A DNA stretch of 56,748 bases from an uncultured Alphaproteobacteria bacterium. Lineage in GTDB: Bacteria; Pseudomonadota; Alphaproteobacteria; HIMB59; GCA-002718135. Positions 87 through 6,390 of this stretch are shown one piece after another. The notes under the pieces were generated by a model. It was not told where the DNA came from and did no database searches. It saw only the letters and a program-made list of their open reading frames with translations. The stretch spans positions 1-56,748 of the forward strand of contig CACKQA010000001.1 of the NCBI GenBank assembly GCA_902602135.1. The letters are read 5' to 3'. Position 1 is the first letter of the stretch, and every line of letters starts with the position of its first letter. Both the position numbers and the translations under genes were made by a program.

Positions 87-500
87 TTAGTTTTTTAATT
101 TGCAATTTTCACACAAACCAAAAATTTCAAGACAGTGCTTATTATATTTAAAATTATTTTTTTCAGCTTGTTTAGAAAAATAAGAAAATAAATTGTTTCC
201 AATTAATTCAGTAACATTATCGCATTTTTCACAAATTAAAAAAGATGTAGAAGTTTTTGCATTACATCCTTCATGTTTACAAGCAACGTAAGAATTTCTA
301 CTTTCTATTTTATGAACTTTTCCAATTTCAATCAATTTATCGAGTGCTCTGTAAACTTGCAGAGGAGATTTTATTCCCTTTTTTTGTATATCATAAAGAA
401 TTGTATACGCCTTCATCGGTTCAGAAGAGTTTTCTAAAACTCCAAGAACTGTTTTTTGATTCTTAGTTAAATTTTCTGATTCTAATGCCATAAATCTCAA
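87..500 (-). CDS. zur: Fur-family metalloregulator, probable zinc uptake regulator Zur
   Basis: 137 aa with an N-terminal winged-helix-like region and paired CxxC motifs (CEKC, CENC) typical of the Fur/Zur structural Zn site. It lies 26 nt downstream of znuB on the same strand. Confidence 0.75.
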   Translation of the reverse strand: MRFMALESENLTKNQKTVLGVLENSSEPMKAYTILYDIQKKGIKSPLQVYRALDKLIEIGKVHKIESRNSYVACKHEGCNAKTSTSFLICEKCDNVTELIGNNLFSYFSKQAEKNNFKYNKHCLEIFGLCENCKLKN

Positions 501-526
501 TTACCAAATTGTTTTCATTTTTGCAA

Positions 527-1318
527 CTAACCTCTTAACTCTAATGGAATTAGAGAAATGATAAATAATATCAGAGCTATAACAATAATTGAGGGTCCTG
601 AAGAAGTATTCAATTCCAAAGAGGTAAATAAGCCAATTGTGACAGATAAAATACCAATTAATATAGCTACAAATACCATTTGTTTTGGATTGTTAGTTAT
701 ATTTCTTGATGCGGCAGCCGGTATTATAAGTAGACCAGTTATTAAAAGAGTTCCAATCATTTTTATAGACAATGCAATAACTCCAGCAAGAAGAAGGGTA
801 AAGATCATATTATATATGTTCGGTTTCATTCCTTCTGCTGAAGCTAGATCATAATTAACTGTAGCAGAAAATAATGATTTCCAAATAAAATACAAAATTC
901 CTAAAATTATAAAACCACCAATCCAAACTAAGGCAATGTCTTGAAGAGTTACTGCTAAGATATCGCCAAAAAGTAATCCCATAATATCAAAACGAATACT
1001 TGATAAAAAACCCATTAAAACCAAACCAATTGCAAGAGTGGAGTGAGCTAATAATCCAAGTAATGAATCACCAGCTAATCTAGTCCTCTTTTGTAAGTTG
1101 AGAAGAAGTAGAGCGATAACTGCAGATATTACAAATACGGAAAAGGCAATATTTAAACTAAAGGCATAAGCTAAAGTTACTCCTAACAAGGCAGAGTGAG
1201 CTAAAGTATCACCAAAATAAGACAGTCTCCTCCAAATTACTAAGCAACCTAGCGGCCCTGTAATTATTGCAATACCGATACCAGCAACTAATGCTCTAGT
1301 AAAAAAATCATCTAACAT
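527..1318 (-). CDS. znuB: Zinc ABC transporter permease (ABC-3 family)
   Basis: 263 aa polytopic membrane protein of ZnuB/TroC size. It shares nt 1318 with the znuC stop and has znuC/znuA/zur context. Confidence 0.85.
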   Translation of the reverse strand: MLDDFFTRALVAGIGIAIITGPLGCLVIWRRLSYFGDTLAHSALLGVTLAYAFSLNIAFSVFVISAVIALLLLNLQKRTRLAGDSLLGLLAHSTLAIGLVLMGFLSSIRFDIMGLLFGDILAVTLQDIALVWIGGFIILGILYFIWKSLFSATVNYDLASAEGMKPNIYNMIFTLLLAGVIALSIKMIGTLLITGLLIIPAAASRNITNNPKQMVFVAILIGILSVTIGLFTSLELNTSSGPSIIVIALILFIISLIPLELRG

Positions 1319-2058
1319 TAACTTGATACACTTCCGTCAGAAGCATGTGTGTGATCATGATCGTGCTGATAATATGTTAAAGTTTTCGATCTATGCTCAC
1401 CAAATAATTCTATATAAGCTTTATCTTTTATAACCGAACTTGGTTTTCCTGAACAACAGATATGTCCATTTAAACAAACTACATGATCTGTTGCAGTCAT
1501 TACAAAATGCAAGTCATGGGAGACTAATAAAATTCCACAATTTAGGTTAGCTGAAATATTTTTTATAATATTATAAAGGTCAATTTCTCCATTAAAATCA
1601 ACTCCCTGCACAGGTTCATCTAAAACTAGTAATTCTGGTTTTTTTGCAATAGCTCTCGCTAGAAGGACACGTTGAAATTCGCCACCAGATAGACCATGTA
1701 TTTGCTCCTTGAAAAGTTTTTCTACACCAGTTTGATTTAAGGATTCAATAATTTCATTATTGCTGAGATTATTGGTTAATCGCATAAAATCTACAACACG
1801 TAATGGCATAGTCCAATCGATATTAATTTTCTGAGGAACATATGCAATTTTATTTGTATACCGCTTCAATGAACCTTCATCAGGTTCAAGAATATTAAGT
1901 ACCATTTTAGCTGTTGTAGTTTTTCCAGAACCATTGGGTCCAATTAGGGTAACTATTTGACCACTTTTTACCTCAAGAGATACACCTCTTATTAACCATT
2001 TTGGTGACTTATAAATACCTGCGTTCTCTAAACTTACCAATAAATTATTTTTACTCAT
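1318..2058 (-). CDS. znuC: Zinc ABC transporter ATP-binding protein
   Basis: Walker A GPNGSGKTT, signature LSGGEFQR and Walker B LLVLDEP. It has a His-rich C-terminal tail (HDHDHTH). Confidence 0.9.
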   Translation of the reverse strand: MSKNNLLVSLENAGIYKSPKWLIRGVSLEVKSGQIVTLIGPNGSGKTTTAKMVLNILEPDEGSLKRYTNKIAYVPQKINIDWTMPLRVVDFMRLTNNLSNNEIIESLNQTGVEKLFKEQIHGLSGGEFQRVLLARAIAKKPELLVLDEPVQGVDFNGEIDLYNIIKNISANLNCGILLVSHDLHFVMTATDHVVCLNGHICCSGKPSSVIKDKAYIELFGEHRSKTLTYYQHDHDHTHASDGSVSS

Positions 2059-2078: not shown

Positions 2079-2100
2079 ATGTAATATTATAACATTACAT
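2079..2100. promoter_or_regulatory. Candidate Zur box in the znuC / znuA divergent promoter
   Basis: The sequence is ATGTAATATTATAACATTACAT. Its core GTAATATTATAACATTAC (2081-2098) is an inverted repeat with one mismatched pair. It lies 23 nt from the znuC start and 38 nt from the znuA start, and it resembles the AT-rich palindromic Zur operators described for alphaproteobacteria. Confidence 0.7.
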
Positions 2101-2135: not shown

Positions 2136-3617
2136 ATGAAACAAACGAACTTTTTTCTACATATTTCTATGATTATTTTGTTTTCAGGAATTCTTGTTGC
2201 AACTGCATCTGCTAGAGCAGAGCTAAAAGTTGTTACCACAATTAAACCACTACATTCATTGATTTCAAATGTTATGGATGGAGTAGGTGAACCTGGACTT
2301 ATAATTGATGGAAGTATATCACCACACAGTTTTACAATGAAACCTTCTCATGCGAAAATGCTTGAGGAAGCAGATGTCATTTTTTGGATTGGAGAGGGTA
2401 TTGAAACATCAATGGAAGAACCCCTAGACTCAATTGCAAAGGATGCAGAAGTAATTGAATTTATGGAACTTGATTCAATTGCTAAATTAAAATTTAGAGA
2501 AGAATCAATTTTTGGTGATCATGACGATCATGATGACCACGACGACCACGACGATCATGATGACCATGACGATCATGATGATCATGATGACCACGATGAT
2601 CATGATGACCACGACGACCACGACGATCATGATGACCACGATGATCATGATGACCACGACGATCACGCACACGGTGCACATGCTTTTGAATGGGCAGGAT
2701 TATTTGATCTAAAAGCGGGAACATATAAGTGGTCTGCTGCTAAAGTTGATGGCGATTATGCTGACCCTGCTATGAAGTTAGTATTACTAGCGGCTGATGA
2801 TATTGAAGCAGTTGAGGAAACGGCTGAAGAACTTTTAGAAAGTAAAACTTCCGCAAAAAAAACAAATGGTGGAACTCTTGTTGCTAAGGAGATTGCATAC
2901 TCTTTAAATTTTGATGATTCTCAAAATATGACTGTGTTTACAGTTGAAATAGCTGAGAATGGAAAATATGCTTTCTTCACAGAGCATATGCCATTTGAGT
3001 TTGAAGCAAATGAACATTTCTTCAAAGATACCTCTGGTGCAGATATAGAACCAATTGCTCAAGAACCAGAAATGGATGGTCACGATCATCATGATCATCA
3101 CGGCCATGCACACGGTGAATTTGATGCTCACATTTGGCTAGATCCAATGAATGCTAAAGAAATGGTTCATGAAATAGCTCATGAGTTAGGTGATTTAGAT
3201 CCTGCCAATAAAGAGAAATATGAAGCAAATGCTGAAGCAACAATTAAAGCTTTGGATCAGCTTATTAATGATGTTGGTACAGATATTAATTCTGATGCAA
3301 AATTTGTTGTCTTCCATGACGCCTACCAATACTTTGAAGAAAGATTTGGTGTAAGAGCAGCAGGAGCATTAACATTGAATACTGATGTTTTACCTGCTGC
3401 GAAGCAAATAGCTGATATTCAGGATGTGATTAAGGATAAGGGAATAAAATGTATTTTCTCTGAACCTCAATTTAATCCAAAGATTATTACAACAATAGCT
3501 GAGGATATGAATATCAAAACAGGAGTTTTTGATCCTTTAGGTGCTAACATCGATGCTGGTAAGTCACTTTACTTTACGTTGATTAGTAATCTCGGGGACG
3601 AGCTTAAAGGCTGTTAA
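2136..3617 (+). CDS. znuA: Periplasmic zinc-binding protein ZnuA (cluster A-I SBP) with a giant His/Asp-rich insertion
   Basis: Signal peptide (..VATASARA). ZnuA-type ligand contexts are SPHSF, DAHIWLDP and VVFHDAYQYF. At 493 aa it exceeds the roughly 310 aa typical of the family. The extra length sits where the ZnuA His-rich loop normally lies. Confidence 0.9.
   Translation: MKQTNFFLHISMIILFSGILVATASARAELKVVTTIKPLHSLISNVMDGVGEPGLIIDGSISPHSFTMKPSHAKMLEEADVIFWIGEGIETSMEEPLDSIAKDAEVIEFMELDSIAKLKFREESIFGDHDDHDDHDDHDDHDDHDDHDDHDDHDDHDDHDDHDDHDDHDDHDDHDDHAHGAHAFEWAGLFDLKAGTYKWSAAKVDGDYADPAMKLVLLAADDIEAVEETAEELLESKTSAKKTNGGTLVAKEIAYSLNFDDSQNMTVFTVEIAENGKYAFFTEHMPFEFEANEHFFKDTSGADIEPIAQEPEMDGHDHHDHHGHAHGEFDAHIWLDPMNAKEMVHEIAHELGDLDPANKEKYEANAEATIKALDQLINDVGTDINSDAKFVVFHDAYQYFEERFGVRAAGALTLNTDVLPAAKQIADIQDVIKDKGIKCIFSEPQFNPKIITTIAEDMNIKTGVFDPLGANIDAGKSLYFTLISNLGDELKGC
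2517..2666 (+). repeat. In-frame (GAY-CAY-GAY)n codon repeat encoding (DHD)16-DH
   Basis: I counted the codons directly: 16 DHD units plus DH, 50 residues in all. Units 9-11 and 14-16 are identical 27-nt blocks, and units 3-5 equal units 11-13. GAT/GAC and CAT/CAC are interleaved. Confidence 0.95.
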
Positions 3618-3688: not shown

Positions 3689-4660
3689 ATGGAAAATACT
3701 TCTCAGGTTCCAGTTACGGTCTTAACAGGGTTTCTTGGAGCTGGAAAAACAACGCTCTTAAATCGAATTTTAACTGAACAGCATGGACGGAAATACGCTG
3801 TCATAGTTAATGAATTTGGTGAGCAAGGTATTGATAATGATCTTGTTGTTGATGCTGATGAAGAAGTATTTGAAATGAACAACGGGTGCATTTGTTGCAC
3901 TGTTAGAGGTGATTTAATTAGAATTCTTAGTGGTTTAATGAAACGTGCTGATAAACTAGATGCAATTATAGTTGAAACAACTGGCTTAGCTGATCCAGCC
4001 CCAGTTGCGCAGACATTTTTTGTTGATCAAGATGTTGCTGATAGAACAAAACTAGATGCAATTGTTACAGTTGCCGATGCTGTTCATTTAAGTTCTCAAT
4101 TAGTAGATCATCATGAAGCAGAAGAACAAATTGCTTTTGCTGATGTAATTTTACTAAATAAAGTTGAACTTGTTGAAGATAATGACATTGTGAAAGTTAA
4201 TGATCGTATTAGAAAAATTAACCCTTTTGCAAAGATTATTAAAACAACACGTTGTGATGCACCTCTTGATGAAATCGTAGGCTTAAATGCATTTAGTCTA
4301 GATAGAGTATTAGATATTGAACCTGACTTTCTTGAATCAGATCATGATCATGAACATGATGATGATGTTACTAGTCTATCCTTTGTATCTGATACACCAT
4401 TAGATATGGATAAGTTTCAAGATTGGTTTGGAAATTTACTGAGGACTAAGGGTCAGGATATTCTTCGATCAAAAGGAATTTTGAACTTTAAAGGTGAAGA
4501 AGAGCGATATGTATTTCAAGGAGTGCATATGCTTATGGATGCTTCACCAATGGGACCTTGGCCTAAAGGAAAAGATAGAAGTTCTCGAGTAGTATTTATT
4601 GGTCGTGATCTTGATAATATGAATCTTAAGGAAGGCTTTGAAAATTGTAAATCAGCATGA
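3689..4660 (+). CDS. COG0523-family (CobW/YjiA/ZigA-like) metallochaperone GTPase
   Basis: P-loop GFLGAGKTT, GCICCT (CxCC) metal motif and a His/Asp stretch DHDHEHDDD before the C-terminal domain. It is located directly after znuA. Confidence 0.85.
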   Translation: MENTSQVPVTVLTGFLGAGKTTLLNRILTEQHGRKYAVIVNEFGEQGIDNDLVVDADEEVFEMNNGCICCTVRGDLIRILSGLMKRADKLDAIIVETTGLADPAPVAQTFFVDQDVADRTKLDAIVTVADAVHLSSQLVDHHEAEEQIAFADVILLNKVELVEDNDIVKVNDRIRKINPFAKIIKTTRCDAPLDEIVGLNAFSLDRVLDIEPDFLESDHDHEHDDDVTSLSFVSDTPLDMDKFQDWFGNLLRTKGQDILRSKGILNFKGEEERYVFQGVHMLMDASPMGPWPKGKDRSSRVVFIGRDLDNMNLKEGFENCKSA

Positions 4661-5694
4661 ACGCTGATTTAGAAAAACTTCAAGAATCAAATAAAACTGA
4701 ACTTGAAAGAAGAGGTTCAATTTTTAATATTGGAGCCCCAGCTACAGAAGCGGTTACAATTAGTGATCAAATAGCGGTAGGATTTGGAGACGGCACTGTA
4801 AGATTTTTTCAATCTGGATCTGATCCTAAAACTGTTAAAGCACATAAGGGTGTAGTGTTGAGTATGACAAATTATGAAGATCATGTCTTAACGGGAGGAG
4901 ACGATGGACGTTTTCTAAAAATATCATCTGATGGAAATATTGAAGAAATTTTTAATTTTGGTTCAAAGTGGGTTGACTGTGTAGCTTCCCACAAAGATAC
5001 TAAAGTTTGTTCATCAGGAAAGACTGTTTATATTTGGACAAAAAACAAAGATAAACCTCAAACTTTAGAGCATCAAAGTACTGTTGCTGGATTAGCATTT
5101 GATAATAAAGGTAAGCGTCTTGCGGTCTCAAGATATGGTGGAGTAACAGTGTGGAAACTTAATAATAATAAATGGACAGCATCAAATTTTACCTGGAAAG
5201 GATCGCATGGAACTGTAACGTTTAGTCCAGATACAAAATATATTGTAACTGCAATGCAAGAAAATCAAATTCATGGTTGGCGCATAAACGATAAAGCGGA
5301 TTTAGCAATGAGAGGTTATCCATCAAAAATTAAAAGTTTCACTTGGGTTGGAGATACACCGTATTTGGTAACATCTGGATCCAGTGATGCAGTTTGCTGG
5401 CCATTTGATGGTAAAGAAGGACCAATGGGGAGAAAGCCAATTGTTGTTGCAAACGGTGGTAAAGAACTTGCAACATTTGTTAAAGCACTTAATGGAGAAA
5501 AAGCTGTTTTCACCGGTTTTACAGATGGGTCAGTTTTATTAGCAGAAATTGATGAAAGTAAAAAACCAATTATGATTAGAAGTTCAACAGGTTCGGAAGT
5601 TTCAACAATAGCGATATCTAGTGATAATTCACAAATATTAATTGGTGATATGAAAGGTTCTATTCTTTTATCATCTTTATGGGCAGACAATTAA
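4657..5694 (+). CDS. WD40 / beta-propeller repeat protein
   Basis: 345 aa with recurring blade-like segments (GDGTVRFF, GGDDGRFL, GVTVWK, IHGWR, GSSDAVCW, TDGSVLL, GDMKGSILL). Its ATG overlaps the upstream stop (ATGA at 4657-4660). Confidence 0.7.
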   Translation: MNADLEKLQESNKTELERRGSIFNIGAPATEAVTISDQIAVGFGDGTVRFFQSGSDPKTVKAHKGVVLSMTNYEDHVLTGGDDGRFLKISSDGNIEEIFNFGSKWVDCVASHKDTKVCSSGKTVYIWTKNKDKPQTLEHQSTVAGLAFDNKGKRLAVSRYGGVTVWKLNNNKWTASNFTWKGSHGTVTFSPDTKYIVTAMQENQIHGWRINDKADLAMRGYPSKIKSFTWVGDTPYLVTSGSSDAVCWPFDGKEGPMGRKPIVVANGGKELATFVKALNGEKAVFTGFTDGSVLLAEIDESKKPIMIRSSTGSEVSTIAISSDNSQILIGDMKGSILLSSLWADN

Positions 5695-5704
5695 AGGAGA
5701 AAAT

Positions 5705-5959
5705 ATGTTTAATCGTAAAAATCAAAATGTTGAAAAAATAAGAAATCTCAAACATTTAATTTCCAAGAAATATAAATTATCAGAAAATACTTTAATAAGT
5801 ATTGCTGAACTCAGTTGTCATGAGCCCGATTGTCCACCAATTGAAACTGTTATTACTGCAAGAAATGAAGACGGATCAATTAAAAATTGGCGAGTAGCGA
5901 AATCAATAGAAGAAATAGAGGAGTCAGATATTAATAATCTAACAAACCACACTCATTAG
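5705..5959 (+). CDS. Small hypothetical protein with a CHEPDCPP motif
   Basis: 84 aa with a strong AAGGAGA Shine-Dalgarno at 5694-5700. It starts 10 nt after the WD40 gene. I recognise no family. Confidence 0.5.
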   Translation: MFNRKNQNVEKIRNLKHLISKKYKLSENTLISIAELSCHEPDCPPIETVITARNEDGSIKNWRVAKSIEEIEESDINNLTNHTH

Positions 5960-5979
5960 ATTGTTAAATTTAGAATAAA

Positions 5980-6390
5980 ATGTCAAAAAAACTAAAAGAA
6001 ATAACATTATCTGTTTGTCTCACATGTACCCTTAATAAAGATCAAAATAATAATAAACTTGCAGGAGAAAAACTTGCACAAAAATTAATTGATAAATTTA
6101 AAAATACAAAAAATGTAACTTTAAGAGGTGTAAATTGCATGAGTAATTGTAAACGTTCATGTATTATATCTTTTACCGCAGAAAATTGTTTTACCTATGT
6201 GTTTGGAGATATAGATACTGAAAATTCTGCTTATATTGATTCAATAGAGGAGCTTTTATTATCCTATAGCAAATCTGATGATGGTTTTTTGAGACGTAGA
6301 CATAGACCTGAAATATATAGATCTAATATAGTTGGTAGATTTCCTCCAATAAATAGTAAGTCAGATATTATTAGTAATTTAAAAAAGTAA
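5980..6390 (+). CDS. DUF1636-like putative metal-binding (thioredoxin-like fold) protein
   Basis: 136 aa with Cys pattern CLTC ... CMSNCKRSC. It resembles the DUF1636 proteins that accompany cobW-type genes in alphaproteobacteria. The family call is from memory of the motif pattern only. Confidence 0.5.
   Translation: MSKKLKEITLSVCLTCTLNKDQNNNKLAGEKLAQKLIDKFKNTKNVTLRGVNCMSNCKRSCIISFTAENCFTYVFGDIDTENSAYIDSIEELLLSYSKSDDGFLRRRHRPEIYRSNIVGRFPPINSKSDIISNLKK

Follow-up and report, generated by a model that had tools for sequence, protein, structure and literature searches.

In surface seawater, zinc is present at picomolar to nanomolar concentrations and is mostly complexed; to our knowledge, the means by which the most abundant marine microbes acquire it are largely unknown. 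A zinc uptake locus on contig CACKQA010000001.1 of an uncultured alphaproteobacterium (56,748 nucleotides, referred to below as the window) raises a specific question in this regard: what does a large insertion do in the loop of the periplasmic zinc-binding protein ZnuA? An initial annotation, made from the sequence, had put this insertion at roughly 200 residues and proposed a high-capacity zinc antenna or a ZinT-like auxiliary function. The analysis presented here indicates that the insertion carries a module, predicted to fold on its own, that appears to represent a new domain family. On balance, we favor the view that this module serves in the ZnuA loop as an accessory domain for metal capture and hand-off and is a functional analog of ZinT, a reading that we hold with modest confidence.

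The ZnuA Protein and Its Insertion

The window protein belongs to the ZnuA family. Pfam PF01297 matches both lobes (E 3e-58, 197.7 bits against a cut-off of 29), and E. coli ZnuA (2ogw), the best of 51 PDB relatives (E 2.7e-49), aligns in two blocks covering query residues 16–144 and 321–493; overall, the protein is about 43% like model ZnuAs and is split by the insertion. The sole testable defining feature that it lacks is the equivalog score, as NCBIfam ZnuA equivalog NF007091 gives 228.8 bits, below its strict 268-bit cut-off. The three ligand histidines, H64, H332, and H394, align with the E. coli motifs EHDY, MHLWLSP, and FHDAY and, together with P63, are invariant in alignment A4 (36 sequences). 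The SPHSF, DAHIWLDP, and VVFHDAY segments are thereby aligned as the canonical ZnuA flanks that the initial annotation had recognized. The layout of the gene is as follows.

2136..3617 (stop codon included), plus strand: znuA, periplasmic zinc-binding protein, 493 amino acids (open reading frame list, Pfam, and PDB alignment)
2136..2219, plus strand: predicted signal peptide, MKQTNFFLHISMIILFSGILVATASARA (hydrophobic core followed by A-R-A; putative cleavage site)
2220..2516, plus strand: N-terminal lobe, residues 29–127, with the first ligand His64 in SPHSF (nucleotides 2325–2327); aligns to E. coli ZnuA 12–136
2517..2666, plus strand: (DHD)16 plus DH tract, residues 128–177, read from the translation; N-side tether, predicted to be disordered and hypervariable in length
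2667..2681, plus strand: AHGAH junction peptide, whose final His (residue 182) is position 1 of the module profile
2679..3071, plus strand: inserted module, residues 182–312, predicted folded beta-rich domain (profile match and AlphaFold2)
2688..2705, plus strand: motif E185-W186-A-G188-L-F190, first strand of the module (conservation over 154 instances)
2985..3017, plus strand: loop H284-M-P286-F-E288-F289-E290-A-N-E-H294, candidate metal site (conservation)
3078..3131, plus strand: C-side His tract GHDHHDHHGHAHGEFDAH, residues 315–332, read from the translation and ending in the second ligand His332 (nucleotides 3129–3131)
3132..3614, plus strand: C-terminal lobe, residues 333–493, with the third ligand His394 in VVFHDAY (nucleotides 3315–3317; alignment)

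On translation, the DHD tract, AHGAH, the non-repetitive middle stretch (nucleotides 2682–3077, residues 183–314), and GHDHHDHHGHAHGEFDAH lie exactly where they had first been placed. The net insertion is 180 residues, as judged by comparison of the 493-residue window protein with the 313-residue module-less relative P0188, which agrees with the estimate of roughly 200. The 50 residues of the DHD tract consist of 17 His and 33 Asp, and Tandem Repeats Finder resolves the underlying DNA (2517–2665) into periods of 18, 27, and 45 nucleotides with 83–90% matches. At its C-terminal end, the tract is joined to the module by AHGAH; position 1 of the module profile is reached by 33 of 157 aligned instances and is His in 85% of those. 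The C-side tract GHDHHDHHGHAHGEFDAH aligns to the E. coli segment HHHGDFNMH and is the counterpart of the canonical ZnuA His-rich loop. A His-rich tract occurs at this C-side position in homologs in which it could be delimited, as well as in module-less alleles. Because the same architecture recurs in eight independent single-cell genomes (L001–L008) and in many metagenome contigs, it is not an assembly artefact.

A Predicted Fold Without Annotated Relatives

AlphaFold2 models were prepared for both the isolated module and the full-length protein. Modeled alone from a 17-sequence alignment, the module has a mean predicted local distance difference test (pLDDT) score of 88.2, a predicted template modeling score of 0.83, about 10 strands, and one helix. 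In the full-length model (36 sequences; mean pLDDT 70), both lobes and the module are confident, and a helix at residues 4–24, followed by a low-confidence stretch, marks the predicted signal peptide. Values below 50 are confined to residues 128–185 (the DHD tract), 285–293 (a loop of the module), and 308–327 (the C-side linker and His tract); in the domain-only model, the 285–293 loop is likewise the lowest internal 10-residue block (66). The module is thus predicted to fold autonomously, as a bead on two flexible, disordered His-rich tethers at the mouth of the cleft, because the model of the isolated module is confident and because free-standing and tandem forms exist. These models bear out the earlier suggestion of a folded beta-rich segment bracketed by two His-rich tracts: the tracts are present and predicted to be disordered, and the middle segment is neither disordered nor variable but conserved in orthologs, with twelve near-invariant residues. 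In every binding-protein subfamily seen, the module occupies the zinc-specific His-rich loop, just upstream of the DPHxW/DAHIW ligand His.

Searches for described relatives were negative throughout. The module has no Pfam match at E ≤ 0.1 and no NCBIfam match, and sequence and profile searches of the PDB returned chance-level similarities only (E ≥ 0.3). A Foldseek comparison, which had been proposed as a means of finding relatives, gave no significant match in the PDB or BFVD (nothing below E 0.05; TM-score ≤ 0.38). Module-only proteins have no precomputed Pfam family, and clusters containing the module are named in their sources only as 'hypothetical protein', spuriously as 'nipblb', or as 'ZnuA'. 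Open-access full-text searches and papers on zinc homeostasis in the sea, on metal transport in SAR11, and on the response of diatoms to zinc likewise yielded no account of the insertion, a survey that did not cover subscription-only literature.

Three candidate identities were considered and rejected. For ZinT (PF09223), there is no Pfam or NCBIfam match, and the top 50 Foldseek matches in the PDB, all of which fall short of E ≤ 0.001, include neither ZinT nor AdcA, so that no match to the calycin-like beta-barrel fold of ZinT was obtained; the expression 'ZinT-like' in the initial annotation therefore describes an analogy, with no relation in sequence or fold. An NCBIfam match to ZrgA (residues 108–182, E 1e-6, 28 bits against a cut-off of 185) comprises the low-complexity DHD tract only. 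The diatom protein ZCRP-B is NikA-like (PMC9010474) and does not correspond to the module.

The module appears to define a new domain family, for which we use the provisional name FEW...HxPxEFExxxH domain. Its signature elements, E-W-x-G-x-F, Y-A-D-P-x-M, and H-x-P-x-E-F-E-x3-H, are all present in the window module. The window module scores 227 bits against the A1 profile, which by construction holds the window's own module; as independent support, it has all twelve near-invariant residues, which were defined on 154 other instances.

Conservation, Selection, and a Candidate Metal Site

Across 154 near-complete instances from ZnuA, ZIP, and free-standing proteins, twelve positions are at least 90% conserved, and these are invariant in the diverse alignment A5. 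The near-invariant set as listed comprises E185, W186, G188, F190, W199, Y208, M213, H284, P286, E288, F289, E290, and H294, and thus includes two His and three Glu. Conservation in the N-terminal motif reaches 96% for E, 94% for W, 90% for G, and 95% for F, and in the 284–294 loop 99% for each of H, P, and E, 100% for F, 96% for the following E, and 95% for the last H; D210 is conserved at 88%. Within the window's clade, codon differences are predominantly synonymous in the module (33 synonymous to 5 non-synonymous), as compared with 85 to 26 in the N-terminal lobe and 56 to 25 in the C-terminal lobe. By this count, the module is under purifying selection and is constrained at least as much as the transporter core.

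A set of two His and two or three carboxylates is typical of Zn(II), Co(II), or Fe(II) ligands. We infer that E185, H284, E288, E290, and H294 constitute a candidate metal site. The H-x-P-x-E-F-E-x3-H segment is the sole internal loop of the module that AlphaFold cannot place confidently, which is the behavior that would be expected of a site that becomes ordered on ligand binding.

Distribution and Host Architectures

Two complementary surveys were carried out. A genome scan using two short peptide patterns found the module encoded in at least 320 genome species, 80 loci from which are listed. At all 80, the module lies within a ZnuA-like reading frame and always just ahead of the C-terminal lobe. 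The hosts at these loci are exclusively marine and include the window's clade (eight single-cell genomes with 99–100% module identity), Pelagibacteraceae, Shimia, Ruegeria, Roseibium, Prochlorococcus, Synechococcaceae, Nitrosopumilus, SAR202, and gammaproteobacteria. Prochlorococcus accounts for many of them, among which are the cultured strains MIT 1012 and MIT 0916, and at five Prochlorococcus loci (L037, L060, L064, L067, and L073) two tandem modules share one ZnuA loop. Tandem modules were also observed in P0026, P0033, P0001, and P0008.

When 1.84 billion representative proteins were searched exhaustively with HMMER, 717 clusters matched at E ≤ 0.001, of which 384 reach E ≤ 1e-10. Free-standing forms, which the initial annotation had proposed to look for with profiles, were found among these clusters. 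The best 146 of the 717 were classified offline with phmmer: in 40, one or two modules precede a ZIP transporter on its N-terminal side (six of these were scanned, and PF02535 was confirmed in them), 33 are ZnuA-type, and 73 are fragments or other architectures, including some small secreted proteins and some with a C-terminal membrane anchor. One ZIP fusion is flanked by eukaryotic genes (Med20 and a protein kinase), and the module also occurs in Symbiodinium records and in transcript catalogs of marine eukaryotes. In a single example, P0056 (366 residues, on a 2.4-kb contig), the module and His-rich linkers lie within a CbiM-type cobalt/nickel uptake membrane protein (PF01891, E 1.5e-23).

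A divergent copy occurs in COG0523 GTPases, inserted between the GTPase and CobW_C domains and encoded next to a module-bearing binding protein. Hosts of this form include L048:5303-6691 (Prochlorococcus marinus MIT 1012), about 30 other Prochlorococcus or Synechococcaceae loci, and the alphaproteobacterial locus L029 (minus strand). Alignment of the insert with the module by hhalign gives a probability of 98.5% (E 2.4e-15, 125 columns), and the insert shows the motifs PFEWTGV...DPxMSLV...QHTAEEF. The window's own COG0523 GTPase (3689–4660) has no module copy. Taken together, five kinds of protein that handle divalent metals carry the module as a fusion: ZnuA-type proteins, ZIP transporters, CbiM, COG0523 GTPases, and small proteins that are secreted or anchored. 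What had been described as a peculiarity of one SAR11 ZnuA is instead a widespread, shuffled family that is optional even in close relatives.

Several features of individual members were also recorded. The eukaryote-like proteins P0039, P0074, and P0105 combine a signal peptide, His-rich runs around one or two modules, and a C-terminal hydrophobic anchor, and P0039 has an additional N-terminal Cys-rich region. In A5, eukaryote-like copies possess a conserved Cys pair that is not present in bacterial copies. No metal genes were found near the gene for the free-standing P0044, which lies at a contig edge. None of the viral contigs encodes the module.

Behavior as a Cassette

The module is 63–75% identical to that of the window in every host compared. 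The lobes, by comparison, are 19–30% identical in Roseibium, Shimia, Nitrosopumilus, Prochlorococcus, and Synechococcaceae, and about 53–62% identical at loci labeled Pelagibacteraceae. Such identities suggest either that the module moved between binding-protein subfamilies and phyla or that it is far more constrained than its scaffold.

Closer relatives reveal the insertion as a presence/absence polymorphism. Four full-length ZnuA proteins of 313–345 residues (P0188, P0202, P0208, and P0250) have flanks 87–98% identical to the window protein and no module; in these proteins, the loop is a DHD run followed by SGHDHHGHAHGEFDAH. The two module-less alleles for which DNA was available are 90–93% identical to the window znuA at the DNA level and share the same synteny (zur-znuB-znuC divergent from znuA-cobW-WD40). 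The edges of the insertion or deletion fall within His/Asp codon (CAY/GAY) repeats. The DHD tract itself varies from 32 to 68 residues among the eight genomes L001–L008, which are 95–99% identical elsewhere, and measures 11 residues in P0179. Asp/His/Glu repeat tracts of about 45–65 residues are observed in the module-less P0208 (345 residues) and P0250 (330 residues); therefore, tract expansion and module presence vary independently. Between L001 and the window, synonymous and non-synonymous codon differences number 28 and 12 in the N-terminal lobe, 5 and 0 in the module, and 3 and 3 in the C-terminal lobe, a mosaic pattern suggestive of intragenic recombination around the repeat tract.

Gene Neighborhood and Regulation

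The genes around znuA are arranged as follows.

87..2058, minus strand: zur (87–500), znuB (527–1318), and znuC (1318–2058), divergent from znuA (open reading frame list)
2080..2099, no strand assigned: Zur-box-like 20-bp imperfect palindrome, TGTAATATTA followed by TAACATTACA, i.e., TGTAATATTATAACATTACA (read from the sequence; 9 of 10 positions complementary)
3689..5694, plus strand: COG0523 (CobW-type) GTPase of 323 residues (3689–4660) and WD40 protein (4657–5694), from Pfam

Pfam FUR matches the zur reading frame (E 4.6e-8), and the names znuB and znuC derive from precomputed Pfam assignments (ABC-3 and ABC_tran) of their syntenic counterparts at L084 and L085. Downstream of znuA, Pfam matches cobW (8e-59), CobW_C (2e-26), and WD40 families. 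These associations are widespread: among the 80 listed module-bearing loci, neighboring homologs were found for ZnuC at 68, ZnuB at 66, COG0523 at 61, the WD40 protein at 56, and Zur at 55. The pairing of COG0523 and WD40 genes has already been noted in cyanobacteria (PMC3323870).

The palindrome TGTAATATTATAACATTACA is situated in the 77-bp divergent intergenic region between znuC and znuA. In marine cyanobacteria, znuA and znuC have one Zur box in common (PMC3323870, PMC9337993). The element at 2080–2099 resembles such a shared Zur box, and Zur control of znuA is likely.

The gene string following znuA (3689–6390) consists of the COG0523 GTPase, the WD40 protein, an 84-residue reading frame, and a DUF1636 protein. 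The 84-residue product (5705–5959) has the motif CHEPDCPP and a C-terminal helix-turn-helix, with homologs at 20 of the 80 listed loci; the DUF1636 protein (5980–6390) has homologs at 8. ZnuC (1318–2058, minus strand) ends in a His-rich tail, ...YYQHDHDHTHASDGSVSS, a potential metal-sensing extension on the ATPase. No non-coding RNA or rRNA was found in the window, and the organism is accordingly placed only as an alphaproteobacterium with SAR11-like synteny.

Proposed Function and Alternatives

A divalent transition-metal substrate is the only thing that the fusion partners of the module share, and for this reason the module most likely binds metal. An accessory antenna role is the most economical, given the Zur, ZnuBC, and COG0523 neighborhoods, the ZIP fusions, and the marine hosts. 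To this extent the antenna of the initial annotation is a reasonable idea. Its 'high capacity' is less secure, as this leans on the DHD tract, which ranges from 11 to 68 residues and is absent in some homologs.

A three-step relay can be envisaged. The acidic, His-rich DHD tether would gather ions weakly over a large volume. The module would then hold one ion with intermediate affinity beside the cleft, at a Zn(II) site formed by E185, H284, E288, E290, H294, and perhaps D210, which might also accept Co or Cd and which would become ordered only upon metal binding. From there, the conserved C-side His tract would relay the ion to the primary site (His64, His332, and His394), and the loaded ZnuA would dock on ZnuBC. 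Functionally, such a relay would be an analog of the ZinT and AdcA-ZinT systems, with an unrelated domain as its basis and with an adaptation to the very low zinc of the sea. In a wider sense, the module is probably an unrecognized part of the acquisition of scarce zinc by plankton. We propose more tentatively, and with rather less confidence than we attach to metal capture and hand-off by the module in ZnuA, that it is an undescribed metal-scavenging domain with no solved relative that has spread laterally as a cassette, by shuffling via His-codon repeats, to the metal-uptake systems of planktonic bacteria, archaea, and eukaryotes, and that a divergent copy was recruited into cytoplasmic COG0523 chaperones. 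Its hosts include roseobacters, SAR11-like bacteria, Prochlorococcus, Nitrosopumilus, and SAR202, as well as dinoflagellates and picoeukaryotes, in which it is carried by ZIP transporters and surface proteins.

Several observations weigh against the capture and hand-off role. No known metal-binding fold was matched: the best Foldseek matches in the PDB have E ~0.06 and a TM-score of ~0.34, and the top entry, the methanotroph copper protein CorA/MopE, is not significant. The module is optional among close relatives and dispensable for basic ZnuA function, since these relatives carry module-less alleles. The N-side His-rich tether is missing in some module-bearing proteins, such as that of Nitrosopumilus L022 and the two-module Prochlorococcus protein L037, whose N-side linker (ENPSSEEGGA) is without any histidine; the three-step relay thus cannot apply to every module-bearing protein. 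From the COG0523 insert, which is cytoplasmic, both the YAD motif and the second invariant His have been lost. Finally, the single CbiM fusion hints that Co, Cd, or Ni, instead of Zn, could be the metal concerned.

The alternative that survives best, although we consider it unlikely, is that the module recognizes an organic zinc-ligand complex, a zincophore, or another metal (Co, Cd, or Ni), thereby widening the range of metal usable in seawater, in which zinc is bound for the most part in organic complexes. The idea is a plausible one and in part a variation on the capture and hand-off role. The near-invariant aromatic residues W186, F190, W199, Y208, and F289 could line a ligand pocket, but they may just form the hydrophobic core. 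Surface-tethered, ligand-competing proteins of marine algae have been discussed (PMC9010474), and one fusion partner, CbiM, is a component of Co/Ni uptake. The main partners, however, are zinc-specific (Zur-linked ZnuABC, ZIP, and COG0523), and the divergent copy resides in cytoplasmic COG0523 proteins, where external organic complexes would be irrelevant.

Less probable still is a regulatory or gating element, in which the module or its tethers would occlude the cleft or block ZnuB docking at high zinc and so throttle uptake. For Synechocystis ZnuA, the His-rich loop has been suggested to have a regulatory function (Wei et al., 2007, as cited in PMC8786288), and the predicted placement of the module in this same loop, at the cleft mouth, is consistent with gating. 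So are the predicted flexibility of its conserved loop and its optional presence in close relatives, as might be expected of a modulator. Conversely, ZIP N termini, COG0523 GTPases, and free-standing anchored proteins have no binding-protein cleft to gate. Moreover, zinc-poor seawater is the habitat of all hosts among the 80 listed loci, and throttling is an unlikely selective force there. The last alternative, a neutral passenger spread by recombination between His-codon repeats and tolerated in a loop of any length, would fit indel edges within CAY/GAY repeats, a loop that accommodates tracts of 11–68 residues, the presence/absence polymorphism, and the decoupling of module from scaffold, but is very improbable in view of the strong purifying selection in the clade, the 63–75% module identity over bacterial and archaeal hosts, the twelve near-invariant residues in three domains of life, the retention of the module in genome-streamlined SAR11-like bacteria and Prochlorococcus, and the absence of selfish-element features or of copies in viral contigs.

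Implications

The module occurs in zinc-uptake proteins of SAR11-like bacteria, Prochlorococcus, marine Thaumarchaeota (ammonia-oxidizing archaea), and eukaryotic phytoplankton, and its hosts thus include some of the ocean's most abundant organisms. That it is fused to two transporter classes unrelated to each other, ABC and ZIP, as well as to a zinc chaperone, points strongly, in the manner of a 'Rosetta stone', to a common role in metal handling. If the module is such a laterally shuffled metal-scavenging domain, it would represent a missing component of high-affinity acquisition of zinc, and possibly of cobalt or cadmium, in the oligotrophic ocean, and the polymorphism between module-plus and module-minus alleles would be a natural marker of zinc stress. 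The module is also a candidate for use as an indicator of zinc limitation in metagenomes or metaproteomes. From the perspective of experiment, it offers a small, soluble, well-predicted domain, five residues, and natural module-plus and module-minus alleles. Domain shuffling between domains of life via low-complexity His-codon repeats would, in addition, be an unusual mechanism of protein evolution.

Comparison with Known Systems

The ZnuA proteins of E. coli, Salmonella, and Synechocystis have in common with that of the window their family, gene neighborhood, three His ligands, and a flexible His/Asp-rich loop directly ahead of the second ligand His. Whereas the canonical loop has about 20 residues and is unstructured, that of the window has 205 residues and includes a predicted folded domain and a 50-residue DHD repeat. 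In E. coli ZnuA, a Glu adjoins the first ligand His; in the window protein, Pro63 occupies this position.

The best functional analogy is with Streptococcus AdcA, or with free ZinT acting alongside ZnuA, which are alike in design in having a second folded domain, often with His-rich tails. The accessory domain of AdcA or ZinT is thought to capture zinc and pass it on. ZinT, however, is a C-terminal fusion or a separate protein, whereas the module is inserted in the loop and bears no similarity to ZinT in sequence or fold; zinc binding by ZinT is proven, whereas metal binding by the module is suggested by its invariant His and Glu residues. The ectodomain of mammalian ZIP4 is an extracellular accessory domain, situated before the ZIP transporter, that promotes zinc uptake; it is helical and occurs in animals. 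The module holds the same position ahead of ZIP in eukaryotic plankton; unlike the ZIP4 ectodomain, it is predicted to be beta-rich, is microbial, and is also found in ABC binding proteins.

In diatoms, ZCRP-B, ZCRP-A, and ISIP2a comprise surface-tethered metal scavengers and a COG0523 chaperone that are induced by scarcity of zinc or cobalt. The cell-surface proteins concentrate scarce metal next to transporters (PMC9010474). The free-standing, anchored module forms P0074, P0105, and P0039 would fit such a role, and COG0523 is linked to both systems; ZCRP-B itself is a NikA-type binding protein (PMC9010474) and is unrelated to the module. Vibrio cholerae ZrgA (DUF2796) is a periplasmic accessory of zinc uptake with a His/Asp-rich region, and its likeness to the window protein is limited to the DHD tract. 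Zinc-binding proteins equipped with an accessory domain are therefore a known arrangement; what appears to be new is the domain family behind this one.

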